Part shown: positions 4,417 through 63,330 of the stretch, in pieces | Layout of the letters: each line of letters starts with the position of its first letter | How positions within the stretch are numbered: the first letter of the stretch is position 1 | Virus record (IMG/VR): IMGVR_UViG_3300044617_000796 | Coordinates: 1-64,000 of that record | Direction: 5' to 3' (one strand) | Source: a virus | DNA: 64,000 bases | Notes under the pieces: generated by a model | What the model was told of the DNA's origin: nothing | Database searches by the model: none | The model's input: the letters and a program-made list of their open reading frames with translations, nothing else | Position numbers and translations under genes: made by a program

Positions 4417-4812
4417 TTAAACCTCCACCAAAGACAACTCAACATCATAATACGAACACTTTGTTGGCATATGTCTTCTTATCAGTGTTTCTGAATACGA
4501 ATCAATAAAGCATTCATATTCTGTATAACCCTCACCTGGGGCTAGTTCTATCCCGACTGTTACGCTTGCTCTTGTGTTGACTAAATTACTTAGATAGCTT
4601 TGTCCAACCCGACCATCTGCAGTTATATTCTGCACACTTGGGAGATACTTCCAGCTTATTGAAAACTTTTGCTTATTCTTAGAATAGTATCTTCTTCTGT
4701 GACCGCTGGCTAGGTCAATATCGTTAGCAGCAATCTCCTCATCAATCTTCAAGGTTCTTCCGTGTTCTGTAATCTCAATACCGTCAATTGTTAGCAACTT
4801 GTATAGATCCAT
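4417..4812 (-). CDS. Distal tail (Dit-like) protein
   Basis: 131 aa, directly after the tape measure gene; predicted beta-rich and ends 'LSLVEV'. Confidence 0.6.
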   Translation of the reverse strand: MDLYKLLTIDGIEITEHGRTLKIDEEIAANDIDLASGHRRRYYSKNKQKFSISWKYLPSVQNITADGRVGQSYLSNLVNTRASVTVGIELAPGEGYTEYECFIDSYSETLIRRHMPTKCSYYDVELSLVEV

Positions 4813-13800: not shown

Positions 13801-16800
13801 CGGGCTTTACCTCTAGATGAAGGCTGCAGGTCCATTTCTTCAAGAATTACTTTATTTCCTTCATCCAATAAAGTTTGCAATTTCTTCTTTGCTTCTAACA
13901 TTTCTTGTTTTTGTTCTGCGATTAACTCATCAAGACCTAAAACCGAACCTAGCAATTCATTTTTTGTAACAGGAAGAGGTGGATTTGTACTTGCAACTCT
14001 AGCAAGTGATGAAATTTTAGCTTCTCTTAATTTTTGAATTTTAAGCCTGGCTTCGTCAATTCTCTTATTAAGAACATAGTCAGGTTTTATTTTTGCTTCA
14101 GCAGCAGCTCTTTTAGCAGCAGCCGCATCTGCATCTAACGAATCAGAGCCAGACCCAAACGCTTTTCTTGCTGCTTCATCTGCGGCTCTTAGCTGTACTT
14201 GCGCATCATTGCCTGGAACAAGTACTTCGTTTTTAACAAGAGTAACCATCCTTTCGCCAGAAGCGTTAACGCTTTCTACAAAACTATGAGTCTTTGCACG
14301 AACATTTCTGAATGCTCTTCTTAAATCATCACCATAAGAAGATAGAGGTCCAGCCTCATTAGCAATAATATCTACCTCATCAACAATGTTTGGAAGAAGC
14401 TTATCTATATCTTTAAGTGAATTAACAACTGTTGTTGATGATTGTTTTACTACTCCATTAGTAATTGATTCTGCCGCAATAAAGTGGTCTTCTATCGCTC
14501 GCTTAACATCATTAACGAGCACTGGCTTTCCAGCAGTCAAATCAGTGATAGTCCTCCCTGTTGCTCCCATAGGAGTATCCAGCATGTTGTCTAATCTCAA
14601 TTCATTAATAGTAGCCAGCGTCTGATTGAGACCAACATTAACTTGCTCAGCAATACTGTCTGACACAGATGCAATAACTGGTGCGAGATCCGCTCGGACT
14701 GCCTTACCCATACCCCTCAAGCCACGGATTGAAGCCAAATTCTTTAGTCTCTTATCAAGACCTTCTTCTCCAGTAGCTAATGTAAAAATACCTTGTTTAG
14801 TTTTATCAAATATTTTTGTTTTAACCGCATCCAAAGTGCCTTTACTTACAGTAAAAACACCACCTTTAGAAAAAGCATATTCCAGTTGATCTGAAATAGG
14901 CTTGCCAGCCTGCACATACCATTCCCTGATCTGATCAAAAGAAAGTTTTACATTATCCCCAGCTCTTGATAAGAATCTCTGGATAGCAACTGGACCAAGT
15001 GGGTCTCTCCCAAGAGCAATTCTGTTTTGACTTATATTAGACAGCAACTGCGCTGGGTTGAACGGGGCTTGAGGTCTTGCAACCGCAGAAGCTGCTTGCA
15101 TTGCACCAGCGGCTGCATTCGCAGGGGAGAACAAGAGGGAGCCAGATCTCTTCTTAATACTATTAAGAGTTTTTTCTAAATCGTTAAATGATTTAGCAGT
15201 AGATGTTGGGAACAATGTTCCTTTTGGATAAGTCGTAACTGTTGGTGGTCTTAACCTAGCCTTTCTTGCCTCATTTGCGGCAACAGCCGCTACGGTTTCT
15301 TCTGGAGTTAGGTCATCAGCGATTGCACCGCCAGATCCTCTTGGCGCTCTTGGTGTTCTTGTACTTCCAGGACCACCAGATGTTCCTCCAAAAGGAATAT
15401 TGTTCTGAAAATAGTTTGGACCAGCGAAAAGGTTTGGTCCTTGAAATCTATGCATCGCATTTGCAAATTGAGCTACGATATCATCAGATAGATTTGCTGC
15501 ACCTTTAGTGACACCACTTTCAGCACCAGCTGCTACTTGAGCAGCACTTTGAGCCGCACCTTGAGCATTAATGGTTTTTAGATCGTTCATGAACTGATCT
15601 GTTTGAGGAACAAACGGTTGCATCCGTTTCATATTTACAGCCTTATCTGAGCCGTAAATGCCTCCAGCTTGAATAGCTTCTTTAGCAGGAAGCGAAATAC
15701 CGCTAAAATCATAAGCTTCTTTTAGTTCTCTCGCCCCCCTCTTTGATTTGATCAAGAAACCATCAAGGTACTGAACAACTCTTTGTTGACCACGCAACAA
15801 ATTTGGATTCATAATTAAGTCTTGAAGGCTTGCAAACTGGAGTGTGGTCCCAGAAACAATTCTTGATAACTTAACAAATATGCCGACTGCACCGCCGAAT
15901 GCATTCTGTATTGTTGTGAAAATCATTCTTACAGGACCAGACAATGCGACAATGCCTAGTAAGGCGCTTGCTAATTTTGCAACAAATGGATTATTTTGTA
16001 AAAAAGATGCAAGCTTCTCTAGGACTGGAAGAAGACCTTTGAGGAAAACATCAACAACTGGAACGACTGCTCTACCCAGAGCCATCAACGATTCTTTTGC
16101 TCTGCGATATCTTACTTCAGGTGTATCTTGAGACAACTTAAGTTCTGCCTCAAATTGTTTTCCAGCAAGTGATTGAACATCAAAAGCTTGCGCCATTAAT
16201 GCTTTACCAACTTCAGTAGACATACCAGATATAAAGTCAGAGTTTTTGCTGTTAGCGCTCTCAAGAAGTTTTTGTGCTGTTTTTTGACCTCTTTGGATAG
16301 CTTGCGCTTGGGCAGTTAAGACATCACTACTATCTTTTTCAATAGCCGCTCTATGTATATTGCTAAGATCCAAGAATTGATTGATTGCAATTTTTTTAGA
16401 CCCGATAGCGGCTAACTCAACATTGATTGAGTTCTGCAGGATATCTGCCGTTGTTCTTTCAACAGAGCCGTAAGTTTCTAAGCTTGTTTGGAAAGCTGCT
16501 AGCTGAGCGAATGCGGTCTCCATTCTTGGACCTTGACGAACACCGAAAAGTCTTGAGAAGAATTCCAGAGCGCCTTGTTTGCCCTTACCGCCTTCACTTA
16601 CAGACTTTGATAAAGTCCTGTACGCATCAGTCAGCATTTGAATGTTTTCCATTCCAACGCCAGCTGAATATTTAAACCCTGTTCCCATTTCAGCATTTAA
16701 CTGATTAATAATTTGCGTATTCTGTTTGGTCATTGCAACCATTCTTTGCAAAGAAACCTTAACCGAGTTAGCGGATGCACCCACCTGGAATCCAGCGCCA

Positions 16801-17939
16801 ATCATTGGAATAACAAGCGACATGGCTTCAGTCATTGACAAACCAAAGCTTGTTGCGGCAGCTGTAACTTCTGGGAATGCGTCAGCTATGTTTCTTAGGG
16901 ACATAACTGTTTTGTTTTCAATCGTGTTAAACACAGCCAACTGACCTCTTAGCTGGCTAATTATCTCATTCGCAACCTGATCACTGTTGATATCAACCGA
17001 TTTACCAGTCTCTCTTCTGATACGAAGAATTGTTTGGTACATCGTCTGAATAAACTCAGAAGACTGGGATATATCTAGGTTTCCTAGTTTCTCAGTCTCT
17101 GCTGTCATTCTTGTAAGGTCTCCAAGAACAATTCTGCTTGATATGCCCAATTCAGCAAAGTCTCCAGCGAGTGATTGTATAAGCACTCTACTGGTGCCCC
17201 AATCTCTGGTGATCTTATCTAAATCTTTTCCAAGCTCTGCGGTAAATGTTCTTGCCGCCTTCACTTGTCCTTCAAAATCACCACCTGCACCTATCTGATT
17301 AAAGTTGTCAAGAATAAGTTTTGTAGTTCTATTACTTTCGGTAGCAAGTTTAGAATAACTAAAAAATGCTTCTCTTAAGCCAGCGATTAACGGTAATGAA
17401 AAGTTCCTAAAAAAGTTATAAGCAGACTGCTGATTCTTCATCGCATTCTCGCTTGTTCTTCTGGAGTAATCAAGAAGAGCGACTTGCTTCATTGCTTTTT
17501 GCAAATCATTGCTTGACAATTTCATTGCATTCATGTGCTTTACGCTTTGCGACATTGCAGCGTTTGATCTGGTTAGTGCCATTGGGTCAGCAGAGCTTTG
17601 ATTCAACATTCTCTGGGCTGCAGAGTACGCTTCTGCAGATCTAGTTGCTTGGTCCAATACACGCTTCTGTATTTCTACAGCTCTCGTCATTCTCCCCAAT
17701 GGATTCAATGACTGAGTTATTTCTCTTGAATATTGAGAAACTCCACTGGCGCTCAACCCCATTGATTGGTTAAAAGCTTTTGTTACATTAGCATTCTGAA
17801 CAGCTCTTTGTGACAAAGTAGCAAGATGTTGCGAAAGATTAACTATCTGGGCAGATAGTTCAGCCGCCTGTTGTGCAGCATTACCTTCCATATTAACATT
17901 TAAATTGACATCGTTGTTAGAGTTAGAGGTATCAGACAT
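4812..17939 (-). CDS. Tape measure protein, very long (4375 aa)
   Basis: Follows the major tail and chaperone genes. N-terminal helical TMP core, hydrophobic stretches, coiled coil, and C-terminal 'GG...LHGGEYV' motifs. Confidence 0.9.
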   Translation of the reverse strand: MSDTSNSNNDVNLNVNMEGNAAQQAAELSAQIVNLSQHLATLSQRAVQNANVTKAFNQSMGLSASGVSQYSREITQSLNPLGRMTRAVEIQKRVLDQATRSAEAYSAAQRMLNQSSADPMALTRSNAAMSQSVKHMNAMKLSSNDLQKAMKQVALLDYSRRTSENAMKNQQSAYNFFRNFSLPLIAGLREAFFSYSKLATESNRTTKLILDNFNQIGAGGDFEGQVKAARTFTAELGKDLDKITRDWGTSRVLIQSLAGDFAELGISSRIVLGDLTRMTAETEKLGNLDISQSSEFIQTMYQTILRIRRETGKSVDINSDQVANEIISQLRGQLAVFNTIENKTVMSLRNIADAFPEVTAAATSFGLSMTEAMSLVIPMIGAGFQVGASANSVKVSLQRMVAMTKQNTQIINQLNAEMGTGFKYSAGVGMENIQMLTDAYRTLSKSVSEGGKGKQGALEFFSRLFGVRQGPRMETAFAQLAAFQTSLETYGSVERTTADILQNSINVELAAIGSKKIAINQFLDLSNIHRAAIEKDSSDVLTAQAQAIQRGQKTAQKLLESANSKNSDFISGMSTEVGKALMAQAFDVQSLAGKQFEAELKLSQDTPEVRYRRAKESLMALGRAVVPVVDVFLKGLLPVLEKLASFLQNNPFVAKLASALLGIVALSGPVRMIFTTIQNAFGGAVGIFVKLSRIVSGTTLQFASLQDLIMNPNLLRGQQRVVQYLDGFLIKSKRGARELKEAYDFSGISLPAKEAIQAGGIYGSDKAVNMKRMQPFVPQTDQFMNDLKTINAQGAAQSAAQVAAGAESGVTKGAANLSDDIVAQFANAMHRFQGPNLFAGPNYFQNNIPFGGTSGGPGSTRTPRAPRGSGGAIADDLTPEETVAAVAANEARKARLRPPTVTTYPKGTLFPTSTAKSFNDLEKTLNSIKKRSGSLLFSPANAAAGAMQAASAVARPQAPFNPAQLLSNISQNRIALGRDPLGPVAIQRFLSRAGDNVKLSFDQIREWYVQAGKPISDQLEYAFSKGGVFTVSKGTLDAVKTKIFDKTKQGIFTLATGEEGLDKRLKNLASIRGLRGMGKAVRADLAPVIASVSDSIAEQVNVGLNQTLATINELRLDNMLDTPMGATGRTITDLTAGKPVLVNDVKRAIEDHFIAAESITNGVVKQSSTTVVNSLKDIDKLLPNIVDEVDIIANEAGPLSSYGDDLRRAFRNVRAKTHSFVESVNASGERMVTLVKNEVLVPGNDAQVQLRAADEAARKAFGSGSDSLDADAAAAKRAAAEAKIKPDYVLNKRIDEARLKIQKLREAKISSLARVASTNPPLPVTKNELLGSVLGLDELIAEQKQEMLEAKKKLQTLLDEGNKVILEEMDLQPSSRGKARVQKAGAERLKEIQDDFDFEFDLMQKHEKRLLARRNLVLDASPAGIQTQIDDIMLSLPDDIKAGIQDIDKAVNDGVSDLSMRSERRVARMKRAFADVKKEIKAAVPMNPMWNAVKQQIPMGSDGSPLDAFRYSGSRFFNDTRFQQPNARMFDARRGLSLPTSIKSFFGMDRVKGSFKVPKSLSAAAITQGEQIIFQFAEQLETQLGSVLANTAQADIKHITRVLQNLKPTSVSKDLATFMTSIVNLPQDQIEMAMGNTLTEIKRAITTQTGAGVGGKGMKSGSLQSWKALLERMRRGSQGLDTDASGNPIVKGIREFFFSGKIKKGAINTTSAKGISTALESAFVASMKGGFEGLGGADDAGVTEVARRLTVESNRPGLGRQRAAKKALKDAGKKTADAVKSIANDIEGFLTAPAAVMADIASKVDMAGAKSSSMIRAATDKVMKPIVKVYKPGELFPGRAPSITPAVTQAVNAATSSTVTPTPQTLKGLKNTEIELPATKRQAEKMMESAQRELARQLGIDAKASGASAKIKKLSVANFEKEIERLQGMIAGEQKLLDTFTSPAMRKGPERNLAKLNKQLKELAFARDKYVVAEFALATAAAEAVPTAPSTIAPTGATGATAPTAPPPRVPTPTTPVIPTPVTPSATGGAGKVIDIKKIGHIFKGPNLFQGPNIFDSSLSDLIPNFDELLSPVGEAAETMADAGDEVATSLSRVLAASEAHKLTGNLVGPGEVGEASRLSRTRTRLFGMKGIGVPSVTAGLDAAKIAGTAGLVEALADKKLRLKFDDAGALIGMSRIKKLGGEMAISFDRANSILAGRLLPNFTRFKKLFSSGIVKGWAFALTGGLTAAVKPAQSLLKAITATGEASMRGKARAAIDTLVESRDGKKTGVVRKAMAGLSGATGGINSLAAIGSKAADVMFKIVRAIVMIGTVAAVALPIIVLMFGIFQAWKSAQGRLTATTEALKQSLTNLKDAVVALFAPIRDMVNGFLGASSIGSTFMTQGEKNAAMFYGIATAIKKATGFMKKWAETTGKAFMTNQVAPFLARLINRFILLGGAIKSAFSGDKEAAGKKLKAFLYSLIYELLNFTKGITDVIAMVLKGLIPVLVTIAKVGVVVFREMFIALVSMAAEAGAGMARNLAADLMTAGFGKEYLKYIGDPFASLVTGNGFKIKGEQSSEQFSDGFSTGLSGKLSKLIDPIKGGLDSALTKGMSEVAKKYAELMGQGINIPLAQRLKNPKAYQDALKYNAKQSADAATAAGESLGGNVNKGIKDKMKEIKDTIKGYFYSNVDAKFENIIQQYIDALTKQKDEQLKAYDDQIAGIDALAEAEERLTAKKEYETKRREMLDQRETDRANYLVERRLAVYEGRAFDVRKLDREEALAQRNSAQEIKELDSGRLSQLQSEQRDLAKQAIANQKDLAEKQFQEVLDTFDRFIEDVKNKSFATQEEFAAALAGVGERANLSSAELAKVFAANIGELPRIIAGVRDPSINMFNTNMDELIKEASKKFGLDANVANPATLLGAVRMMAIGSEEGFKAAFNPAFAAAYVQPAIDAIAKITSSLSEKGNKNNIAEIWQKAGTDAFEKLRGELNRDIAFPKILESFKKLFEDLKPLVKQIVDLAGEASGALGGIGDNIVPGAAFTQEDRKNLEQYLLKFAPSDAGRRGDFSLNSPSLQKVVGIIMRDYDKGSEYMMSNIGSYGLNGLERVLLQGYLNNQTVSPGVPTLMRPLPGSVIRSYNGGHIRQFVRGGFLDAPSSQGIPALLHGGEYIINHKAVEKFGKGNLEKINALRHGGDLKGFASGGYMTTPGFANGGYMTTPGFAKGGSVRKYGVEDQKDILAKKALQTLQGPYATSIPVVASPTINLRSLPLVKNNLAGEGGISTVRSASFGIGKGEVLLPTVVQGKILSNTNAFNAYASGGYKNHLGIYANTAAASKAAEVIHLSEANRIGQVAKAQAQRNVDLKNAGIAKNFVGPIAPVIKPKEKSWWQKALPIVKEIARPRNSFAIAGGIIGGILGLPALGIGSVGGSAIGAGIGGAIGEFTEQIFDDIKGLQPFNIAKNALMQGTLDYAGGKVMTKVVAPIMKAKFPGVGTYLEGKIARPILDLFKKPGIKPFNPSILKPENVFDIQMQGPRPAIPPAPVKNPAVSVEDVFKDGFAPRASAAFAGSDGAIDKQVLDLFDELDNIASGQTNKLTTQLQRDVLKARLQAQGLIPRSMESLDEVGYYNSIIDNLLGVRSNVAPTDEILAEWAENMGKIDPAQLANDIFQQTGDIPMPKSFDPRIIPASREVIDFNNLQKDIAWATSRLLKDSDGVLPPDVLENIAKARNIKPGMEWWLQEQSDLLLPKANQPISFINKFGPGGKDIYKETSDIFMSLRERMALAPKELTTGGSGGALEIIKKITPIKTYKAGTGVLGEMPKYNYDTGGLDLKQLGLYVHKIGKENVVFGGMKSPLKGLAKRNPSLNIKSVGLNPYEISNLKPGTVEGDAIANEWARAIIGFTDVMGNSKDDTFISALLYNWKRNKDLFAMLKFKEYESLGSIAVNEQKVKMSGNTGEIIDTIVKGKKDYFKLKDLFVTHETPYPVDIDELGNLTLKPMSAFDTTSMVSFKGPYPGGPYNLGDKAEYFRDTLHFALNHRVTGHGFRENVQEGNFIISQLLPMLKNNPGALDNLYTVDTFFTPPPGKGLNFPAGTFKVVPIKKGSGINPTDELEKYMIEVLKITEQADVGSTFGTISPEQIIQKYKISGGDHGSEDYADNAISFLFAKLLGVKTGRHFDQFNSSTMFGSMKQGANINPSEYLNSYYYPMAGENAWSRVMSRNPFAQNFDMPYDNPQLMEKIQKVYDTFKMNEMSFPGGLPYNRRAYNGGYMPKFKKGGYLKFKEGGEVPSILHGGEYVLNSAAVKKYGLAHLEAMNQMKFNVPSAGFSVPQASYSGSAAGGMTTSTQNVNIYVDNFIGEPEWFNSMMKDYNTKILPKNQKAAGLENRVISTYNGLNRGQ

Positions 17940-49866: not shown

Positions 49867-50112
49867 CTATGTGCGCTTTCGCTTTTTTTTTGGTTCCTCA
49901 ATTGTTCCATTAAAGTCTAAACAGTTTACACCATTTTTAAAAAAAATTTCTGCGTCTTTTTCAGAAATCTCGCAGGTGACTGGGATGTGTGTGAACATAC
50001 ATCTTGAAGCTGCTACATAGTAATCATTCATTTTTATGATTGAGATGAAATCGGAGTCCATTATGGCAGCACCGCTGCATTCATCAGACTCAACAATCCC
50101 GACAATTCTCAT
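49867..50112 (-). CDS. Hypothetical protein
   Basis: Leaderless TGgTATACT promoter. Confidence 0.65.
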   Translation of the reverse strand: MRIVGIVESDECSGAAIMDSDFISIIKMNDYYVAASRCMFTHIPVTCEISEKDAEIFFKNGVNCLDFNGTIEEPKKKRKRT

Positions 50113-50312
50113 AACTGAAGTATACCACCGTATTCTTTATACTAAGAGTACCAAGTGTACTAGTATACTTAATTGTTTATAAGTATATAAGTATATAGAG
50201 TACCTCGCTCGCTTTGCATGCGAAGCATACCAGTATTTTGCGACTTTTGCATCACTTTTGCAATTTTTTTTTATTCAATCAAATCTGGGAAAAGATGGTG
50301 TATCATATACCT

Positions 50313-50489
50313 ATGAACTTCTTTTACTTTGTAATTTACGCCGCTTATTTGGTACTTAATGCATTAATGTTTAAACTCGCAATTAGCTGGGGTTTTGAAC
50401 ACCAAATTGGTTGGAAGTCTGCTTTGATGTTTTCTTTCTTAGCAAGCAGTTTTGCTCTATTCCATAAAAATCGTGCTAAACCCGAATGA
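50313..50489 (+). CDS. Small membrane protein
   Basis: Two hydrophobic helices; start at 50313 after TATCAT. Confidence 0.55.
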   Translation: MNFFYFVIYAAYLVLNALMFKLAISWGFEHQIGWKSALMFSFLASSFALFHKNRAKPE

Positions 50490-50874
50490 CATTGATTTCT
50501 CATATCTAGAAGGTAAGAGAGTACTTGTTCTCTCAGATACAAGCTATAGACATGAGTATATAGTTAACTTTATTGAGAAGCTTAACAAATCTAAAGTTTA
50601 TATTTATATATCTCCAGCTACAACTTCTAGGTTTATTAAACTGTGGACAAAGACTGCAATTGATAAGAATGCTGAAATTATTTACGATAAACATTATGAA
50701 TATTTTTATACAAATAAAATTGATGATTATGAAATATGCATTATACTTGGTAAAAAGAAATCAAAAGAAACTCCCATATTAACTAGATTAGTTCGTGACA
50801 TGCTTTTGACTTATAAGAATATAACAATTGTTACAGAAAAAGGAATTGATTGCGATGAGAATTATACCGTATGA
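50452..50874 (+). CDS. Hypothetical protein
   Basis: ORF within an overlapping operon; start uncertain. Confidence 0.55.
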   Translation: MLYSIKIVLNPNDIDFSYLEGKRVLVLSDTSYRHEYIVNFIEKLNKSKVYIYISPATTSRFIKLWTKTAIDKNAEIIYDKHYEYFYTNKIDDYEICIILGKKKSKETPILTRLVRDMLLTYKNITIVTEKGIDCDENYTV

Positions 50875-57531: not shown

Positions 57532-57705
57532 ATGGCTATCTATCATTACCGCTGCCACAACCAGCACACCTACGAAGAGTCTAGAAAGATGTCTGAAGAA
57601 CCTAGAGTAGTTACATGTCCTGAGTGCGACCTACCTCTGAAACAAATATTCTCCCCGCCAGGAATCAACTTCAAAGGTCATGGCTTCTACCGTAACTCTC
57701 GGTAA
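57532..57705 (+). CDS. FmdB-family zinc-ribbon protein (57 aa, absent from the ORF track)
   Basis: MAIYHYRCHNQHTYE...CPECDLPLKQIFSPPGINFKGHGFY. Confidence 0.8.
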   Translation: MAIYHYRCHNQHTYEESRKMSEEPRVVTCPECDLPLKQIFSPPGINFKGHGFYRNSR

Positions 57706-57759: not shown

Positions 57760-57825
57760 GGCAGCGAAAGCTAACCTTAGGACCGTTATAGGTGCAGATG
57801 CCTCTGGGCTCAACCCCCAGGGGCA
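57760..57825 (+). ncRNA. Candidate small structured RNA
   Basis: TATACT upstream; AGC-GAAA-GCT, ACCT..AGGT and ATGCCTCTGGG/CCCAGGGGCAT stems; no convincing ORF. Confidence 0.35.
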
Positions 57826-57974
57826 TGTGCATGTGTAGCGGTCTTTTTTATTCTCCCCCAAACTTTTATACTCCTATACCCGCCCTGAACCTTCCTATCC
57901 CAAATTTGAGTATACATTTTATGAATGTTACTTTTACTTTTAGACGCACTGGAAAATCCTGTGTTCACTAGGGT

Positions 57975-58026
57975 CAATCGCTGGAGTGCGATTCTGCTTA
58001 AGCAAAGAATTGTACACCAGCGATTG
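57975..58026 (+). repeat. Cassette hairpin H1
   Basis: CAATCGCTGG..ATTCT-GCttaaGC-aa-AGAAT..CCAGCGATTG. Confidence 0.85.
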
Positions 58027-58047
58027 GGAAAGCGGATACAAAGGAAA

Positions 58048-58079
58048 TTGAATACACATTTTCTCTCAAATGCTATTGT
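58048..58079 (+). promoter_or_regulatory. Cassette promoter P1 (box plus extended -10)
   Basis: TTGAATACACATTTT; TGcTATTGT starts 20 nt after the box start. Confidence 0.75.
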
Positions 58080-58120
58080 AATTTGTGTCAAGGCAATCCC
58101 GCCGAGACAGAGAGGACAGT

Positions 58121-58354
58121 ATGATTACTGAACACTGGACACGACAGAATGAGTTGCGTGAGCGTGAGCGCATGGCACTACGCTTGCTCAACCATATCCT
58201 GTCAATGACAATACCCGTTGAGGCTAATGACGATTGGTCTTGCGTCAAGTTCAACCTCAAATTAGAGGGCGGTTCCATTACCGTAATGACAGGCGCACAA
58301 TATCACCCGTCATGCAATATGTACGAGGTCATGGAATACGAGGTACAGCGATGA
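58121..58354 (+). CDS. Cassette 1 ORF a, hypothetical
   Basis: GAGGA RBS, ATG 58121. Confidence 0.7.
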   Translation: MITEHWTRQNELRERERMALRLLNHILSMTIPVEANDDWSCVKFNLKLEGGSITVMTGAQYHPSCNMYEVMEYEVQR

Positions 58355-58443
58355 AGTACCTACCACGCATTGGCTTCGGCATTGTGATTGGTTGCTTGGT
58401 TCTGATGATTGTTCAGACCATCGCCCACGCCTTTACAATGTGA
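58351..58443 (+). CDS. Cassette 1 ORF b, 30-aa single-TM peptide
   Basis: ATGA overlap; MKYLPRIGFGIVIGCLVLMIVQTIAHAFTM ends just before the terminator. Confidence 0.55.
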   Translation: MKYLPRIGFGIVIGCLVLMIVQTIAHAFTM

Positions 58444-58447
58444 GCCC

Positions 58448-58492
58448 GAACCCCGAATGCCTCCCCCCTGAGGCATTCGGGGTTCTTTTTTT
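58448..58492 (+). terminator. Intrinsic terminator T1
   Basis: GAACCCCGAATGCCTC/GAGGCATTCGGGGTTC plus T-run. Confidence 0.88.
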
Positions 58493-58564
58493 GTCCCTGC
58501 ACCCGCCCTATCGCATGTCTGTTCCAATGAACTTTAATACACTCACAACACACATGCGATCGGG

Positions 58565-58603
58565 TGGTGGGCAAGGGCGCTTCAGCATTGCAATTGCACA
58601 CCA
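58565..58603 (+). repeat. Cassette hairpin H2 (degenerate)
   Basis: TGGTG.GCAA..C-GCttcaGC-att-G..TTGC.CACCA. Confidence 0.7.
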
Positions 58604-58631
58604 ACTGTTGAGGATCAGAGCATGAACGAGA

Positions 58632-58663
58632 TTGAATACACATTTTTCCTCACATGGTATGTT
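58632..58663 (+). promoter_or_regulatory. Cassette promoter P2
   Basis: TTGAATACACATTTT...TGgTATGTT. Confidence 0.75.
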
Positions 58664-58708
58664 TATTGTTATCGGAACACACCTAACCCCGATGAAAGGA
58701 CAAAGACC

Positions 58709-59017
58709 ATGAGTGAAAGAATATGTTCATATCATAGTTGGAACTACTTGTATGAAGTGCACCCAAGCGGTAAGTACTTCATTGCATACCAGTTCAGTTA
58801 CGACAATAAAGAGAGACAAGTTATTGCCGTAGTTGACCGCTATGTAACAGATGACAAGTGGGCTGCTATGCGTTGGTGCAGGGCACAGTATGACCTTGAG
58901 GTTGAACCTTGGGACAGAAGTGCTGAAGCCAACGAGATTAGGGAGAGTGCAAGGGTTGCCTTGCATGAACTCCACGAGTTGGAGAAAGAACAGGACAGGT
59001 ATCGTATCTACGGGTGA
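58709..59017 (+). CDS. Cassette 2 ORF, hypothetical
   Basis: GAAAGGA RBS, ATG 58709. Confidence 0.7.
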   Translation: MSERICSYHSWNYLYEVHPSGKYFIAYQFSYDNKERQVIAVVDRYVTDDKWAAMRWCRAQYDLEVEPWDRSAEANEIRESARVALHELHELEKEQDRYRIYG

Positions 59018-59022
59018 TACCA

Positions 59023-59050
59023 TCTCCCCTCGCCTTTGGGCGGGGGGAGA
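59023..59050 (+). terminator. Terminator-like hairpin T2 (no U-tract)
   Basis: TCTCCCCTCGCC-tttg-GGCGGGGGGAGA. Confidence 0.65.
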
Positions 59051-59114
59051 ACCCCGACCTAATTGCGAACGATCATACATGTTTTTTAATACACATTCTC
59101 ACAAGAAAAAATCA

Positions 59115-59155
59115 TTGGTGTGCGGAGCTGCTTCAGCGAAAGATTTGTGCACCAA
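59115..59155 (+). repeat. Cassette hairpin H3
   Basis: TTGGTGTGCGGA.CT-GCttcaGC-gaa-AG.TTTGTGCACCAA (four G.T pairs). Confidence 0.85.
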
Positions 59156-59182
59156 CGAATAGGGCACATGCTCTCAACAGCG

Positions 59183-59214
59183 TTTAATACACATTTTTTA
59201 CAAGATGGTATGTT
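59183..59214 (+). promoter_or_regulatory. Cassette promoter P3
   Basis: TTTAATACACATTTT...TGgTATGTT. Confidence 0.75.
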
Positions 59215-59260
59215 TATTTATGTCAAGGACACTCCCTAACACCTTGACAGGGAGATAGCA

Positions 59261-59452
59261 ATGAAAAAGCGGACAGAAGTTAGTCCAAACCACCCAGTCG
59301 CAAGACTGACACTGGAACAACAATTCATGGTTGTTGCAGGCGCACTCAATCGTGCTACCCAGCAGGGCAACACGAAAGGCATTCAGGGCTTGGCAATGAT
59401 GCTCAAGGGTTACGAGGAAGCAATAGCCAAGAAGAACCAAGAAGCCAAGTAA
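59261..59452 (+). CDS. Cassette 3 ORF, small helical protein
   Basis: GGAGATAGCA-ATG. Confidence 0.72.
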   Translation: MKKRTEVSPNHPVARLTLEQQFMVVAGALNRATQQGNTKGIQGLAMMLKGYEEAIAKKNQEAK

Positions 59453-59469
59453 TACCCTAATCCCCCCAG

Positions 59470-59505
59470 TCCCCTCAAGCCGAAAGGCTTGGGGGGATTT
59501 TTTTT
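59470..59505 (+). terminator. Intrinsic terminator T3
   Basis: TCCCCTCAAGCC-gaaa-GGCTTGGGGGGA-T8. Confidence 0.9.
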
Positions 59506-59576
59506 GCCTAAACACCAGCGTTCTCACATGACCATACCCTTTATCTTTAATACACATTCTCATCACACAAGAACGG

Positions 59577-59615
59577 TGGTGTGCAAAGCTGCTTCAGCAA
59601 AAGATTTGTACGCCA
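59577..59615 (+). repeat. Cassette hairpin H4
   Basis: TGGTGTGCAAA.CT-GCttcaGC-aaa-AG.TTTGTACGCCA. Confidence 0.85.
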
Positions 59616-59643
59616 ACGAATGAGGTACACACTATCAACTCTC

Positions 59644-59675
59644 TTTAATACACATTTTCCATCAGATGGTATGGT
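59644..59675 (+). promoter_or_regulatory. Cassette promoter P4
   Basis: TTTAATACACATTTT...TGgTATGGT. Confidence 0.75.
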
Positions 59676-59719
59676 TATCTTGTTCCTAGCAATCCCGCTA
59701 GGACAGATTGGAGATAGCA

Positions 59720-59941
59720 ATGAAAATTATGGTTACTATCCAAACCCCGACTTGCCCCGAATGCGGGCATTGGGGCGAGATCCAAATGACCCGTGATGAA
59801 TGGGAGTTTGGCAAGACGGCTAGTTGGCAGGGCGAACTCATTCAGAATTGTTTCCCTACCCTTACCCCAGCCCAGCGTGAGCAACTCATGAATGGCTACC
59901 ATTCAGAGTGTTGGGATAAGATGTTTGCGAGTGCAGAATGA
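59720..59941 (+). CDS. Cassette 4 ORF a, putative zinc-binding protein (CxxC...HxxC)
   Basis: GGAGATAGCA-ATG; 'CPECG...IQNCFP.LT..QRE.LMNGYHSECWD'. Confidence 0.75.
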   Translation: MKIMVTIQTPTCPECGHWGEIQMTRDEWEFGKTASWQGELIQNCFPTLTPAQREQLMNGYHSECWDKMFASAE

Positions 59942-60177
59942 GCCCGCAATTACTGGAGACTATCCTCCACGCCGTAGCAGACCTACGGATACCCAAGACT
60001 GACGGGGTAATCATTGAGGCTCTCAAGATACCCCGTGAGATATTCCAGCAAGACGGTGTAGAGTGCCGTAAATACAAGCGGAGTGTTGAGCATCAGATAC
60101 GCACTCACCCCGCTATCAAGCCAGTACTTGTCTGGTGGACAGTACACGGTGACTGCTACTTGACAAGAGCAGACTGA
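59938..60177 (+). CDS. Cassette 4 ORF b, hypothetical
   Basis: ATGA overlap; ends before T4. Confidence 0.62.
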   Translation: MSPQLLETILHAVADLRIPKTDGVIIEALKIPREIFQQDGVECRKYKRSVEHQIRTHPAIKPVLVWWTVHGDCYLTRAD

Positions 60178-60182
60178 AACTT

Positions 60183-60216
60183 CCCCCTCGTGCCTTCGGG
60201 TGCGAGGGGGTTTTTT
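60183..60216 (+). terminator. Intrinsic terminator T4
   Basis: CCCCCTCGTGCC-ttcg-GGTGCGAGGGGG-T6. Confidence 0.9.
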
Positions 60217-60289
60217 CATGTCCAACACCAGTCTTTCCGTATGCCATTGCCCATTGTCTTGAATACACATTCTCATACGAAAAAAAGAA

Positions 60290-60328
60290 TGGTGTACGGA
60301 GCTGCTTCAGCAAAAGCTTTGTGCACCA
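60290..60328 (+). repeat. Cassette hairpin H5
   Basis: TGGTGTACGGAGCT-GCttcaGC-aaa-AGCTTTGTGCACCA. Confidence 0.87.
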
Positions 60329-60356
60329 GCCGAAGGGGTACACACTCTCAACTACA

Positions 60357-60388
60357 TTGAATACACATTTTTCATGATATGTTATGTT
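60357..60388 (+). promoter_or_regulatory. Cassette promoter P5
   Basis: TTGAATACACATTTT...TGtTATGTT. Confidence 0.75.
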
Positions 60389-60435
60389 TATTCATGTCAG
60401 CGATTATCCTAACCCCGCTGGCAAGGAGAAAGCAA

Positions 60436-60693
60436 ATGAAACGAGTACCTAAAGGCTCTGTCAAGGTAATGAAGCGTGGGCGCAGTAAGTTCCATGACCC
60501 GTACCTTGCCAAGTGCGTCAAGGCAGTAAGCAACACTTATGATATTGTTGCAACACAAAGGGCAGTACCGAACACGATAGCCAACAAAAACCGTGTTCGT
60601 TCCCGCATTATGAGCCTTGCAGGAAACAAAAAACTTGGCGTGAATTGGTACGCTGAGGGCAAACTTGTAGTGCCAGTAATCACCAAGAAATAA
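60436..60693 (+). CDS. Cassette 5 ORF, basic protein; probable distant paralogue of cassettes 7/8
   Basis: AAGGAG RBS; 'KRGRSKFHD...RSRI..LA....GVNW..EGKLVV'. Confidence 0.7.
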   Translation: MKRVPKGSVKVMKRGRSKFHDPYLAKCVKAVSNTYDIVATQRAVPNTIANKNRVRSRIMSLAGNKKLGVNWYAEGKLVVPVITKK

Positions 60694-60709
60694 GGTCGCT
60701 TCTCCAGCG

Positions 60710-60743
60710 AACCCCCAAGCCTACGGGCTTGGGGGTTTTTTTT
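60710..60743 (+). terminator. Intrinsic terminator T5
   Basis: AACCCCCAAGCC-tacg-GGCTTGGGGGTT plus T-run. Confidence 0.9.
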
Positions 60744-60813
60744 GTGCCTGAACGCCAGCGCCATAGCAAAGTCATAACCAGTTGGTTGAGCACATGTTCT
60801 CTCTCTTGATATG

Positions 60814-60860
60814 TCGTTGGCGTGCGGATTGGGTTTACCAAACAATTTGAACGACAACGA
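60814..60860 (+). repeat. Cassette hairpin H6 (compensatory apex)
   Basis: TCGTTG.CGT.CGGATTG-GGtttaCC-aaa-CAATTTG.ACG.CAACGA. Confidence 0.82.
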
Positions 60861-60884
60861 AAAGGGTACAGGGTCTCAACGGCA

Positions 60885-60916
60885 TTGAATACACATTTTT
60901 GATGACATGGTATGTT
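60885..60916 (+). promoter_or_regulatory. Cassette promoter P6
   Basis: TTGAATACACATTTT...TGgTATGTT. Confidence 0.75.
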
Positions 60917-60962
60917 TATAGATGTCAAGGACATTCCATACCCCCTTGACAAGGAGATAGCA

Positions 60963-61229
60963 ATGACACACCTACCCGAACACCCAAGAGCACTCACGAT
61001 TGCTCATGAGGATGTTGTCAAAGTTGCCTTGCAACTGAAAGACAACCTCATCACCAGAGGCGAGATGAATGCTCAGATGCTCAGCATTGTGGTTGGCATG
61101 AAAGTTGCCCTGCGCCAAGAGTTCATTGGCGAAGTGCAGGACAAGTTGAGCGACATTGAGCAACTGTTCACAGATGTTCAAGGCTCAATTGAGGAAATGG
61201 ATTACCTCACACTCTTCCAACCAGAGTGA
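60963..61229 (+). CDS. Cassette 6 ORF, acidic helical protein
   Basis: AAGGAGATAGCA-ATG. Confidence 0.72.
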   Translation: MTHLPEHPRALTIAHEDVVKVALQLKDNLITRGEMNAQMLSIVVGMKVALRQEFIGEVQDKLSDIEQLFTDVQGSIEEMDYLTLFQPE

Positions 61230-61244
61230 TTGTTCCTTCCCCCG

Positions 61245-61279
61245 CTCCCCTCGCCTTCGGGCGGGGGGAGTTTTTTTTT
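61245..61279 (+). terminator. Intrinsic terminator T6
   Basis: CTCCCCTCGCC-ttcg-GGCGGGGGGAG plus T-run. Confidence 0.9.
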
Positions 61280-61349
61280 GCCTGAACTCCAACTTTTCCC
61301 ATATGCCATGTCTCTTTGCTTGAGTACACATTCTCACACTGGAAAAAAA

Positions 61350-61392
61350 GCTGGTGGGCGGATCTGCTTTAGCAAAAGATTTGCACTCCAGC
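61350..61392 (+). repeat. Cassette hairpin H7
   Basis: GCTGG...GCGGATCT-GCtttaGC-aaa-AGATTTGC...CCAGC. Confidence 0.85.
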
Positions 61393-61418
61393 CAATGAGG
61401 AAGCGAAACGAAACCAGG

Positions 61419-61450
61419 TTGAATACATATTTTTAGCGTAATGCTATATT
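61419..61450 (+). promoter_or_regulatory. Cassette promoter P7
   Basis: TTGAATACATATTTT...TGcTATATT. Confidence 0.75.
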
Positions 61451-61516
61451 TATCTCATGCCAAAGCGATTAGGCTGAGGCAACACACTGCGGTGTGTATA
61501 ACCAAGGAGATAAGCA

Positions 61517-61828
61517 ATGCCAAAGGTAAACCTAAGCGACCTCAAAGGTCAGTTATCATCTCGTGGGCGAGCCCCGTATGACAACCCTGAACTTGAGGCT
61601 GAAATCAAGAGCCTTGACCCAGCCATTGATGGTGATGCAACCATCTATGAGGGCAGTCAAGGAGACCCATCAAGCGAGGACTACACGAACCACAAAGCAA
61701 TGTGGCGTGGGCGTGCCGAGACAATTGCCGACAAGAACGGCATTGCCATCAGCGTGCAGTGGCTCACCACTGGTCAGATGGTTATCTCGCTTGCCAAGCC
61801 TGCAAAGGGCAAGAGCAAGCGCAAGTAA
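61517..61828 (+). CDS. Cassette 7 ORF, RGR-motif protein (paralogue of cassette 8)
   Basis: AAGGAG RBS; aligns end to end with 62149-62454. Confidence 0.8.
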   Translation: MPKVNLSDLKGQLSSRGRAPYDNPELEAEIKSLDPAIDGDATIYEGSQGDPSSEDYTNHKAMWRGRAETIADKNGIAISVQWLTTGQMVISLAKPAKGKSKRK

Positions 61829-61850
61829 CCGCATCTCCTGCGGTTAGTAT

Positions 61851-61885
61851 AGAACCCCCGTACTTCGGTACGGGGGTTCTTTTTT
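61851..61885 (+). terminator. Intrinsic terminator T7
   Basis: AGAACCCCCGTAC-ttcg-GTACGGGGGTTCT-T5. Confidence 0.9.
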
Positions 61886-61980
61886 GCTGGCGTTCATCCC
61901 GTGCTGAAGCACAATGAACGCCAGCTTTGCGACACATGCCATTCTCTCATTTTTAGTACAGATTCTCAATCCCATTCCCT

Positions 61981-62025
61981 GGCGGGCGTGCGATTGCGCT
62001 TTAGCGATGCAATTGCACACCCGCT
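61981..62025 (+). repeat. Cassette hairpin H8
   Basis: GGCGGG.GTGCGATTGC-GCtttaGC-gat-GCAATTGCAC.CCCGCT. Confidence 0.85.
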
Positions 62026-62050
62026 GTTGGGGTACCAATACGAAACCGAA

Positions 62051-62082
62051 TTGAATACATATTTTCACCATAATGGTATGTT
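62051..62082 (+). promoter_or_regulatory. Cassette promoter P8
   Basis: TTGAATACATATTTT...TGgTATGTT. Confidence 0.75.
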
Positions 62083-62148
62083 TATTTATGTCAAAGGCAA
62101 TACCGCCGAGACACACTCATACCGAGTGTTGAACATGGGAGAATACCT

Positions 62149-62454
62149 ATGGCAAAGATAAACCTCAATGACTTGCAAGGCATGCTGTCCAAGCGTGGGC
62201 GTGAGGCGTTCCACGATGAGACACTACAAGCCGAGATTGTTAGCCTTGACCCAAAGGTTGAGGGTGACGCATTCATTTGGGATGACGCACAGGGTAATCC
62301 AAACGATGAGGATTACACAAACCACAAGGCTAAGTATCGTGGTCGTGTTGAAACCATTGCAGAGCGCAACAATGTCGCTGTGTCCGTTCAATGGACTACA
62401 GACGGGCGTTGCGTAGTCTCACTCGCCAAGCCTGCCAAAGGCAAGCGCAAGTAA
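62149..62454 (+). CDS. Cassette 8 ORF, RGR-motif protein (paralogue of cassette 7)
   Basis: GGGAG RBS; 'EDYTNHKA..RGR.ETIA..N..A.SVQW...G..V.SLAKPAKGK'. Confidence 0.8.
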   Translation: MAKINLNDLQGMLSKRGREAFHDETLQAEIVSLDPKVEGDAFIWDDAQGNPNDEDYTNHKAKYRGRVETIAERNNVAVSVQWTTDGRCVVSLAKPAKGKRK

Positions 62455-62475
62455 CCCTTACCCCGTAAGGCGTGT

Positions 62476-62510
62476 AGAAGCCCCGTACTTCGGTACGGGG
62501 CTTCTTTTTT
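62476..62510 (+). terminator. Intrinsic terminator T8
   Basis: AGAAGCCCCGTAC-ttcg-GTACGGGGCTTCT-T5. Confidence 0.9.
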
Positions 62511-63330
62511 GCTGGTGTTCATCCCGTGCTAAAGCACAATGAACACCAGTTATCAGAAGGCTTATCGTTACCATTTTTAATATACATATTCCTAATCATA
62601 AAGATGGCGGGTGTCCCAAAAAGAAATGCATTTGTTTTTGTACACCCGCAAAATATAATTAATTTATCGCTTAACTTTATTACATATTTCTAATCATAAC
62701 TATAAGATTACATATGGCTTTCAAAATGTATTCCAAAATCTCATAGATAAATACTTATCTAAGGGAGGAAGGTAAAAGTTTACGCACATTTTATTTTTGT
62801 TAATCAAATGGGCTGGGAAAGACTTAGCCTGTCTCTCTACCTATCGCCTCAGATTACATCAGTGTAATCAAACACTTATACTATTCCTAAATCTATGCAT
62901 CAACCCGTCATTATTCTGGGTCATCAATCGGTTATAGTATTACGCCCCTATATAGTCTAAAAGAGGGGGAATATGTTTGTATTATTCTTATAGATACCCA
63001 GTAATAGGGTATTTACATAGGGGAATCTAAATAGATCTCAATATCTGAGCTTTTTTGCCCAATTGTTGACCATTTTGGTAGTATTTCTATTAAAAATATT
63101 ATTAATTAGTGAAAAAAAGACAAAAAAAACACCCAAAAATAAGCTTATTTTAAGCCTATAAATGGGTGTTTTCCTTATGTACTATGTGATATATCAGCTA
63201 TATATTATTGATACATCTATGATATGCCTATGATATGAACTCCTGCTATATAGAATATATCTTATACATATTGGAGCGTGTCTCTCTCATACGCTAATGG
63301 TTTTTGACACTTATTTTCTATCAATTCAAA

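Follow-up and report, generated by a model that had tools for sequence, protein, structure and literature searches.

The window, i.e., the whole 64,000-nt stretch of DNA analyzed, belongs to the CheckV-complete genome (108,840 nt) of an uncultured siphovirus-like phage from a freshwater lake environment. The nearest capsid relatives of this phage are Streptomyces siphophages, and its giant ORF encodes a 4375-aa tape-measure protein. The genome also encodes RecA, RuvC, and two WhiB-like proteins, the latter pointing to an actinobacterial host, whereas a profile search of the complete genome found no sigma-70 or other sigma factor gene. Between 57.9 and 62.7 kb, the window contains eight head-to-tail units with one or two small ORFs each, all on the plus strand. 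The units share a common order of elements: terminator, optional box A, 43-nt hairpin, 30 nt, box B, a TGn-TAnnnT −10 element, 5′UTR stem-loop, SD, and small ORF(s). The array adjoins a 600-nt AT-rich non-coding stretch.

All features described below are on the plus strand. The putative promoter P0 (57909–57934), in which a box-like word precedes a TGn-TAnnnT −10 at shorter spacing, lies approximately 45 nt 5′ of the first hairpin. Core module 1 (57976–58087; hairpin 57979–58021, box B 58048–58062, extended −10 58071–58079; covariance model (CM) score 84.4 bits) precedes c1a (58121–58354; 77 aa, family 6, an ORFan) and c1b (58351–58443; 30 aa, hydrophobic), which overlaps the c1a stop codon; terminator 1 (58448–58495) combines a 16-bp stem with a T run. 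Unit 2 begins with a degenerate box A (58536–58547; 4/12 mismatches, box B 99 nt downstream), followed by core module 2 (58559–58671; hairpin 58563–58605, box B 58632–58646, extended −10 58655–58663; 90.9 bits) and c2 (58709–59017; 102 aa, family 5, an ORFan). The GC-rich hairpin 3′ of c2 (59024–59049) lacks a T run and is absent from the terminator list, and read-through into unit 3 is likely. Unit 3 comprises an exact box A (59088–59099; box B 98 nt downstream), core module 3 (59110–59222; hairpin 59114–59156, box B 59183–59197, extended −10 59206–59214; 90.9 bits), c3 (59261–59452; 63 aa, family 2), and terminator 3 (59468–59507). In unit 4, an exact box A (59549–59560) and core module 4 (59571–59683; hairpin 59575–59617, box B 59644–59658, extended −10 59667–59675; 91.7 bits) precede two ORFs and terminator 4 (60183–60216): c4a (59720–59941; 73 aa, family 3), Cys-rich and zinc-ribbon-like with a weak DUF7167 match, and c4b (59938–60177; 79 aa, family 15), whose position is taken by an unrelated gene in the relative R.

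The second half of the array follows the same plan. Unit 5 has an exact box A (60262–60273), core module 5 (60284–60396; hairpin 60288–60330, box B 60357–60371, extended −10 60380–60388; 90.9 bits), c5 (60436–60693; 85 aa, family 1 short form), and terminator 5 (60709–60746). The box A of unit 6 (60789–60800) is degenerate, again with 4/12 mismatches; it is followed by core module 6 (60812–60924; hairpin 60816–60858, box B 60885–60899, extended −10 60908–60916; 82.8 bits), c6 (60963–61229; 88 aa, family 4), and terminator 6 (61244–61280). Unit 7 consists of box A (61323–61334), core module 7 (61346–61458; hairpin 61350–61392, box B 61419–61433, extended −10 61442–61450; 86.1 bits), c7 (61517–61828; 103 aa, family 1 long form), a basic protein that has invariant arginines and ends in a Lys-rich tail, and terminator 7 (61851–61885). 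A hairpin of a second type (61886–61925; 20.8 bits) lies directly 3′ of terminator 7 and precedes box A of unit 8 (61955–61966), core module 8 (61978–62090; hairpin 61982–62024, box B 62051–62065, extended −10 62074–62082; 92.6 bits), c8 (62149–62454; 101 aa, family 1 long form, 60% identical to c7), and terminator 8 (62476–62510). Another copy of the second-type hairpin (62511–62550) stands 3′ of terminator 8, and the two elements together are 92% identical to 61847–61924. The array ends with a remnant (62579–62715) that contains boxes at 62579–62590 and 62679–62690 and a long AT-centred hairpin (62606–62649), is followed by no gene, and is kept in relatives.

Consecutive box B elements are separated by 584, 551, 461, 713, 528, 534, and 632 nt. 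In the 108,840-nt genome, the 12-nt box pattern is matched exactly at 11 sites, all on the plus strand and within the array, vs. none for the reversed pattern used as a control. A covariance model built on the 113-nt core, from the hairpin to the −10, matches at only the eight array sites in the 108.8-kb genome, the terminal remnant scoring as a weak ninth module (62603–62715, 33 bits). These data confirm the eight units with a common non-coding frame described in the earlier note. The last hairpin pair is located 30 nt upstream of the box core and TGn 23 nt from the start of box B, each in 8/8 units, and box A precedes box B by 98–99 nt in units 2–8. The array indeed starts with a hairpin lacking a properly spaced box A and ends with a degenerate hairpin and box, giving n+1 hairpins for n cassettes. 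On the other hand, the view that only spacing is conserved among divergent sequences does not hold: the intergenic units are paralogous, with 60–80% identity over approximately 200 nt. In each 5′UTR, a conserved word lies close to the SD, with an inverted repeat upstream. Canonical terminators were found in seven of the eight units, and 19 terminator-like sites were observed in the array region vs. 4.5 expected. Within the genome, the combination of box and −10 is confined to the array, and a scan for consensus sigma-70 (−35/−10) promoters detected none of the eight array promoters.

The core module recurs approximately 230 more times, nearly always at a length of 113 nt, on about 50 contigs from freshwater viruses and metagenomes. 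The register between hairpin and box B is rigid, being fixed in 46 of 48 units. Invariant spacing fails for box A, which is located 88–116 nt from box B in relatives or is missing from some units. Relatives also vary in how far the hairpin lies from the preceding terminator or from box A, and in the −10 the first T, the A, and the final T are kept, while the inner bases vary by lineage. Among 35 hairpin copies, 86% of positions are paired and 8 of 13 pairs have changed on both sides, a pairing score that was reached by none of 500 shuffles; the top mutual-information pairs in 177 distinct units are hairpin pairs. The excess of G·U over A·C (226 vs. 46) and of G·A over A·G (230 vs. 17) assigns the fold to the plus strand, i.e., the non-template strand, approximately 70–110 nt upstream of the predicted start. 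No Rfam family matched the array at the gathering threshold, in agreement with the suggestion that the element lies outside the described families; the best scores (19–27 bits, all below threshold) belong mostly to terminators and terminal hairpins, with one weak miRNA-model match on hairpin 1. The modules fall into at least four types, and nearly every array seen contains a single type, a uniformity that may stem from shared ancestry instead of a type-specific factor.

P0 marks the limit of the conserved backbone that the phage has in common with its relatives; the high-identity HSPs to R, L151, and L154 stop at 57934–57935. Beyond this point, the relatives carry from at least 3 to 15 cassettes, in units spaced by 410–890 nt, and vary in which cassettes they have and in what order. 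Cassette order was mapped in approximately 25 apparently distinct arrays, whose ORFs formed 43 clusters, of which about 30 are credible families. The differences include transposition of c6, which is placed elsewhere in the L151 and L154 arrays, gain and loss of whole cassettes, and replacement of one gene. Identity comparisons between relatives demonstrate that the histories of module, 5′UTR, and ORF are uncoupled: the respective values are 70, 100, and 97% for family 6 in G vs. L201, and 98, 97, and 67% for family 3 in L154 vs. L201. The breakpoints are scattered: some lie close to the site just past the −10 where transcription is predicted to begin, others at the start codon, at the base or apex of the hairpin, or at terminators. 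Hairpins are not tied to one fixed side of the exchanged cassette. Recombination is deduced here from mosaic patterns in metagenome contigs, some of which may be assembly chimeras among such repeats, although several array contigs recur independently in IMG/VR and metagenome records. The proposed cassette shuffling is thus borne out, as relatives do not carry the same genes in the same order.

All cassette proteins are ORFans, and no confident Pfam or PHROG family was obtained for the 34 representatives, which leaves the host-takeover or anti-defence role suggested in the earlier note a conjecture. The ORF families are kept as proteins across relatives. The genes, described in the earlier note as mostly unrelated, include three paralogs, c5, c7, and c8, which form family 1. 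Family 1 (c7/c8) is universal in the arrays and always terminal, and its subtype follows the module type in 36/36 cases.

Taken together, these observations probably describe a lytic freshwater actinophage whose array is its hyperplastic ORFan region, made of autonomous cassettes with promoters controlled by box B and the hairpin and shuffled by general recombination in the absence of a site-specific recombinase. The promoters, transcription starts, and temporal class of the cassettes are predictions from sequence. Each small gene or gene pair would form its own transcription unit, in which host sigma-A RNA polymerase would start at a promoter having only the TGn-TAnnnT −10, and box B (core AATACACATT, centred near −31) would take the place of the usual −35. 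Box B is most likely read by a putative adaptor protein, as in MotA-dependent T4 middle promoters or in WhiB/PafBC-type sigma adaptation. The hairpin, folded in the plus (sense, non-template) strand 30 nt upstream of the box, would constitute the second half of the control site and is most likely bound by a phage-specified factor co-regulating all cassettes. Its acting form may be single-stranded DNA or read-through RNA: the strand bias fits both, and RNA copies should be rare because seven of the eight upstream terminators look efficient. The 5′UTR stem-loop and a strong SD come next, and each unit would be insulated by its intrinsic terminator. Since the same 113-nt module precedes every cassette, it provides portable homology, and the comparison of arrays shows that general recombination deletes, duplicates, and moves cassettes and exchanges them between co-infecting relatives; RecA and RuvC are encoded by the phage itself. 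A bolder version, which we put forward tentatively and consider rather unlikely, is that hairpin and box form a two-part promoter site of a new kind, in which a small phage protein (family 1, c7/c8, being the best candidate) recognizes the apex of a single-stranded hairpin and fixes the promoter geometry used by host RNA polymerase, with at least four mutually exclusive specificity types. If so, cassettes could pass between phages but control modules could not.

The sense-strand fold, with its many G·U and G·A pairs typical of RNA, also suits a hairpin that acts only as RNA, being transcribed by read-through and then causing back-up termination or pausing, or offering a site for RNase III-type processing. 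Such a hairpin would uncouple neighboring cassettes and keep the next promoter free, leaving the cassettes and their homologous shuffling unchanged. Read-through is likely, as the terminator of cassette 2 and its counterparts in R have no T run, and hairpin 1 lies downstream of the conserved promoter-like P0. However, more than 200 copies show exactly the same spacing between the hairpin and the next promoter, while the spacing from the hairpin back to the preceding terminator differs widely, and an RNA 3′-end or processing element would not need this exactness. Given also that no U tract follows the hairpin, that mutual information reveals no larger RNA structure, and that Rfam has no match, we regard an exclusively RNA role as possible but unlikely.

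The earlier note had raised a candidate new system of cassette capture or expression. In an integron-like or IS200/IS605-like version of such a platform, a dedicated recombinase would cut the single-stranded hairpin as its recombination site, inserting and excising cassettes. The strand-specific imperfect fold, the n+1 hairpins, and the variable cassette content and order among relatives agree with such a platform. It nevertheless appears very improbable, as each cassette brings a promoter and a terminator of its own, breakpoints are spread over the −10/start region, start codon, hairpin base, and terminator, and hairpins keep no fixed cassette side. Moreover, the complete genome yielded no matches to Phage_integrase (PF00589), Resolvase, or Y1_Tnp (PF01797), i.e., to tyrosine or serine recombinases or Y1 HUH transposases, whereas control genomes did. 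An IntI-associated array, promoterless attC cassettes, and an IS200/IS605-type element with a phage-encoded transposase were rejected on these grounds. Iterons of a replication origin, or a partition or packaging site with incidental small ORFs, might be suspected from the many direct box repeats in one orientation beside the AT-rich non-coding stretch. We find this extremely unlikely, given that the spacing between each box B and a −10 is constant, that a UTR, SD, and conserved ORF come next, that arrays vary from at least 3 to 15 units 410–890 nt apart, and that the ORF families are conserved as proteins in relatives. What stands of the earlier interpretation is the part supported by these data, namely that the cassettes are autonomous and linked by a structured repeat whose geometry is fixed.

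Judged from sequence, the array is made up of regulatory cassettes whose shuffling is due to homologous recombination and not to integron-like capture, and resembles the promoter-early stem-loop (PeSL) cassettes of hyperplastic regions in T4-type phages (Arbiol et al., 2010, PMC2839356; Comeau et al., 2014, PMC4122927). In the latter, no dedicated recombinase is involved and the repeats supply homology for general recombination (PMC2839356, PMC4122927). The earlier note had named PeSL as an analog, and the array behaves in the same way (PMC2839356, PMC4122927). Both systems have a repeated composite terminator stem-loop and promoter (eight copies in our genome, where each of the seven canonical terminators is followed by a box/−10 promoter) between small non-essential ORFan genes, in a region that is ORFan-rich, since the 34 representatives have no confident family, and variable. 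Close relatives differ by ORF insertions, deletions, replacements, and rearrangements with crossovers inside the repeated element, consistent with general recombination on repeats. A further trait of PeSL-type cassettes is the formation of excised mini-circles through recombination between flanking elements. Homology to T4-type PeSL was rejected, given the Streptomyces-siphophage-like capsid, the 4375-aa tape-measure protein, WhiB, and the lack of sigma-70 consensus promoters: PeSL belong to a T4-type myovirus and the array to a siphovirus-like actinophage, with no sequence relation. The array promoter consists of a −10 and a box at approximately −31 instead of a sigma-70 −35/−10 pair, and the array adds a covarying strand-specific hairpin that is locked 30 nt before the box, as well as an optional second box at a distance of about 98 nt on the 5′ side.

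In T4 middle promoters, a MotA box at −30 accompanies sigma appropriation, and in actinobacteria sigma is adapted by WhiB-like proteins or PafBC. The array shares with these systems a −10-only promoter in which a box near −30, read by an adaptor bound to host sigma, replaces the −35, and the phage has two WhiB-like proteins; however, its box is unrelated to the MotA box or PafBC motif, and its adaptor is putative. To our knowledge, none of these systems has an upstream single-strand hairpin. N4-type hairpin promoters were rejected, because the giant ORF is a tape-measure protein rather than a virion RNA polymerase and the fold lies on the non-template strand approximately 70–110 nt upstream rather than on the template strand at the start. 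Integron attC arrays are likewise rows of small cassettes separated by imperfect strand-specific hairpins, but our array lacks an integrase, a single crossover point, and the attC box pattern, and its cassettes own their promoters and terminators. Among actinophages, SAS and ESAS are repeated intergenic control motifs of Cluster K. A 17-bp palindrome plays the part of repeated intergenic motif in Cluster O (PMC4351075). These short conserved motifs also occur in many intergenic regions of small-gene arms, but they are 13–17 bp words scattered genome-wide and unrelated in sequence to the array, not a 113-nt promoter-hairpin module bounding autonomous cassettes in a single array. New in the present system, also in comparison with PeSL, are the hairpin locked to the promoter and the existence of at least four module types, with one type per array in nearly all arrays seen.

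The viral record, whose first 64 kb make up the window, is 108,840 nt long in IMG/VR, is rated complete by CheckV, and carries eight units arranged head-to-tail between 57.9 and 62.7 kb. Each unit comprises an imperfect 43-nt hairpin, a poorly conserved 30-nt spacer, a box upstream of the -10 element (box B, core AATACACATT), an extended -10 element (TGn-TAnnnT) beginning 23 nt after the box B start, a 5'UTR whose predicted 5' end forms a stem-loop of 7-8 pairs, a strong SD sequence followed by one or two ORFs of 30-103 aa, and one intrinsic terminator. Seven of the terminators are canonical, and the one after cassette 2 has no T run. Units 2-8 also possess a first box upstream of the hairpin (box A), located 98-99 nt upstream of box B. 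A 12-nt box pattern has 11 copies genome-wide, all of them on the plus strand and within the array (0 copies for the reversed control). The eight-unit layout described in the earlier note holds, with three corrections. The intergenic units, previously considered divergent sequences at fixed spacing, are paralogous DNA with 60-80% identity across approximately 200 nt; the ORFs, described as mostly unrelated, include three paralogues (the products of cassettes 5, 7, and 8, i.e., c5, c7, and c8); and the supposedly invariant box A spacing is no rule beyond the window's genome, the distance to box B being 88-116 nt in relatives.

Most genes of the phage are located on the minus strand, and the array closes a plus-strand block (50.4-62.5 kb) that converges on minus-strand genes. 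The GC content of the array is 47-48%, vs. 36-43% in the surrounding genome (57.9-62.6 kb compared with the rest of the window). The sole box preceding the first hairpin belongs to P0, a distant box-like promoter (57909-57934), and the array ends with a hairpin/box remnant (62511-62715) that has no gene after it. The backbone upstream of the array, with the gene of a 57-aa Zn_ribbon_8 protein just 5' of it (57532-57705) and the long hairpin terminator that follows (57780-57850), is 96-98% conserved in relatives as far as P0. Between the array end and the converging minus-strand genes lies an AT-rich, gene-free stretch of approximately 600 nt (62716-63330), a candidate terminus, origin, or terminator zone. 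In the eight cassettes (58085-62148), the 5'UTR stem-loops have loops rich in C that show partial complementarity to the SD sequence of their own leader, and this complementarity could provide translational control. Conservation of the 5'UTR often exceeds that of both the ORF and the module (the 113-nt core from hairpin to -10).

The hairpin fold is supported by covariation. In 35 hairpin copies, 86% of cells are paired and changes on both sides occur in 8 of 13 pairs; the covariation score was reached by none of 500 shuffles, and slid registers fall to 26-43% paired. Among 177 distinct units, the stem pairs are the top mutual-information pairs; one of them occurs as T-A (120 units), G-C (35), or C-G (15), and another as four Watson-Crick types. 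Three of the base pairs, at a spacing of three, do not vary, and the 3' arm is conserved in sequence. Non-canonical cells are strongly one-sided (226 G.U vs. 46 A.C; 230 G.A vs. 17 A.G; 57 vs. 7 in a separate count), and therefore it is the plus strand that folds, either as sense RNA or as non-template DNA. By eye, most terminators are followed by a copy of the 3' arm that lacks its partner and sits approximately 31 nt upstream of box A. A more extensive RNA structure surrounding the hairpin was rejected, as no further covarying pairs were found, and so was a small ORF after the hairpin, whose start codons are not conserved by eye. No Rfam family matches the hairpin. The 5' arm of hairpin 7 (61350-61357, GCTGGTGG) matches the Chi octamer of E. 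coli exactly, and the other arms carry near variants; the identity is probably coincidental, the predicted host being an actinobacterium. Recombination hot spots within modules would fit shuffling.

Among 48 units from six genomes, 46 have the same hairpin-to-box B register, and a single gap column suffices to align all 48. Box A is degenerate in many units of relatives and absent where the terminator abuts the hairpin. Since the box B register is rigid and box A is loose, the functional core consists of the hairpin, 30 nt, the box, and the -10; by this geometry, the hairpin is assigned to the downstream promoter and not to the upstream terminator. Box A was also considered as a second promoter and rejected: it has no consistently spaced TAnnnT, the distance is variable, the box is missing from some units, and no -10 follows it.

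An exact search of IMG/VR with the 15-nt box returned only chance single matches, and the -10 or a hairpin arm had to be added to the pattern. With such patterns, the same arrays turned up both in contigs of IMG/VR and in 63 stretches of metagenome sequence. The 48 units of six genomes served to build a covariance model spanning the 113-nt core, which scored the eight units of the window's genome at 83-93 bits; the only extras there were the terminal remnant, at 33 bits, and, upstream of unit 8, a 21-bit stretch composed of box A and hairpin', a second hairpin type found after terminators 7 and 8. In the fetched contigs, the model detected approximately 230 strong copies, almost all with a length of exactly 113 nt, in arrays of up to 15 units spaced by 410-890 nt. 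No cultured phage record was matched by blastn with the array or by tblastn with c8.

At least four versions of the module were distinguished. Type I (the window's genome and the relative contigs R and L164) has one apex form and a -10 whose start lies 13 nt past the box core; type II (L151, L154, and L156) has a second apex form, whose loop is one base longer, and a 14-nt spacing; type III (L180) has a different, longer box; and type IV was found in L209 and L171. The coupling of apex form with -10 spacing extends over 177 units. The 106-kb metagenome contig L180 carries a more distant array (258-2397), in which a hairpin lies directly 3' of each terminator, the box is identical across units, and a family 1 gene stands at the end. 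Approximately 45 arrays are uniform in type; the exception, L171, in which a single type II unit precedes units of type IV, softens the statement that mixed arrays do not occur. The same cassette families are found under different module types, and cassette bodies 97-100% identical between the window's genome and L151 stand behind modules of different type.

The cassette proteins of all arrays form 43 families, approximately 30 of them credible, and none could be assigned with confidence in Pfam or PHROG. Family 1 always closes the array, in 1-4 copies, and its long form has one subtype per module type (36/36). As a lead, this match fits a type-specific reader of the module, and linkage and descent can also explain it. 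The predicted fold of c8 is confident (pLDDT 86.5); Foldseek found no match to it at E <= 0.001, and the best VIA-align match (Z 4.8) is within noise. The weak matches include several small nucleic-acid-binding domains, which do not count as evidence. A search for a type-determining gene yielded a single case: in the otherwise window-like L151, a type-II-like patch at 50232-50597 encodes a small membrane protein and includes a control region. The divergent control region between the minus- and plus-strand gene blocks (50112-50330) holds many GTATAC palindromes and related words; in L151 it is of the type-II lineage, as far as 50597, with flanks 91-93% identical to the window's genome.

The phage genes recognized include portal, protease, and capsid, the last approximately 54% identical to that of large Streptomyces siphophages, as well as ribonucleotide reductase, a DnaE-type polymerase, primase, several glycosyltransferases, RecA, and RuvC. 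Near the N terminus of a tape-measure-like ORF of 4375 aa (4812-17939, minus strand) lies a minor-tail/tape-measure domain; if this ORF does encode the tape measure, an exceptionally long tail would be expected. An N4-like reading of the phage was dropped on account of the tape-measure assignment. Beyond the window lie two WhiB-like genes (77534-77740 and 103294-103470, both on the minus strand) and, next to the latter, a MerR-like HTH gene (103691-104131); all three are candidate regulators of the array promoters. Among 14 control genomes, the WhiB profile matched only Corynebacterium, which points to an actinobacterial host, and the genomic GC content of approximately 40% suggests that this host probably belongs to one of the low-GC freshwater lineages. 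Phages of 'Ca. Nanopelagicales' have already been isolated (PMC10202952).

The first T, the A, and the last T of the -10 are kept in all lineages and the inner bases differ, as expected for a sigma-A-type -10. No resemblance to a -35 is seen in the hexamer 17-18 nt upstream, and a sigma-70 consensus scan found none of the eight array promoters. Box B is centered near -31 from the predicted start, the position also occupied by the MotA box of T4 middle promoters and by sigma-adaptor elements of actinobacteria; by this analogy, we infer an adaptor-dependent promoter class. The complete genome encodes no sigma-70 family protein, and no RNA polymerase was found among the ORFs of the scanned 50-57 and 63-108 kb regions. 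The host polymerase would use the array promoters via an adaptor, for which WhiB proteins or a cassette protein are candidates, and the hairpin may constitute the factor-binding half of the control site.

Comparison of cassette content and order among relatives, proposed in the earlier note, revealed combinatorial variation. The order of families is 6-5-2-3-1-4-1-1 in the window's genome and 14-6-5-(34)-2-4-3-1... in L151, L201, and L154, so that family 4 (c6) precedes family 3 in these contigs, vs. its position after family 1 in the window's genome. In R, one more cassette stands at the front, and the second gene of cassette 4 is a different one; other arrays have only some families in common, or repeat a pair. 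Between the window's genome and L201, family 6 is 70% identical in the module, 100% in the 5'UTR, and 97% in the ORF; between L154 and L201, family 3 is 98, 97, and 67% identical, respectively. Between the window's genome and R, module and ORF are 96 and 72% identical for family 5, and 72 and 99% for family 2. These values indicate separate histories for module, 5'UTR, and ORF. High-identity patches begin just past the -10, within the UTR, or at the start codon, and stop at terminators, the hairpin base, or the hairpin apex. The same note had suggested a candidate new capture system and a search for a tyrosine recombinase or HUH protein elsewhere in the genome; the complete genome has no tyrosine recombinase, serine recombinase, or Y1 transposase, and with scattered crossovers such a system is not supported. 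Because the crossovers are scattered in conserved words, the phage encodes RecA and RuvC, and a site-specific enzyme is missing, the evidence argues for homologous recombination, and cassettes would recombine by the phage RecA pathway.

Promoter-locked and strand-specific, with type-specific versions, the hairpin represents a putative control element of a kind not described before. If a factor reads it, this would be a new way to address a set of promoters, and orthogonal promoter/regulator pairs for actinobacteria could come from the system. The 113-nt module is searchable and occurs in more than 230 natural copies, and the genes of its cassettes fall into at least 30 families, a catalogue of accessory phage genes for tests of host takeover and counter-defence. 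The array is a shuffling cassette array of freshwater actinophages that resembles the promoter-early stem-loop (PeSL) cassettes of T4-type phages (PMC2839356, PMC4122927), in which repeated promoter-terminator modules express ORFan genes and act as crossover points for shuffling; the promoter-locked hairpin and the type-specific modules are new. This principle is thereby extended to the phages of abundant low-GC freshwater actinobacteria, an unrelated group of ecological importance, where shuffling appears to proceed by the PeSL-type mechanism, i.e., homologous recombination, and not by an integron-like one.
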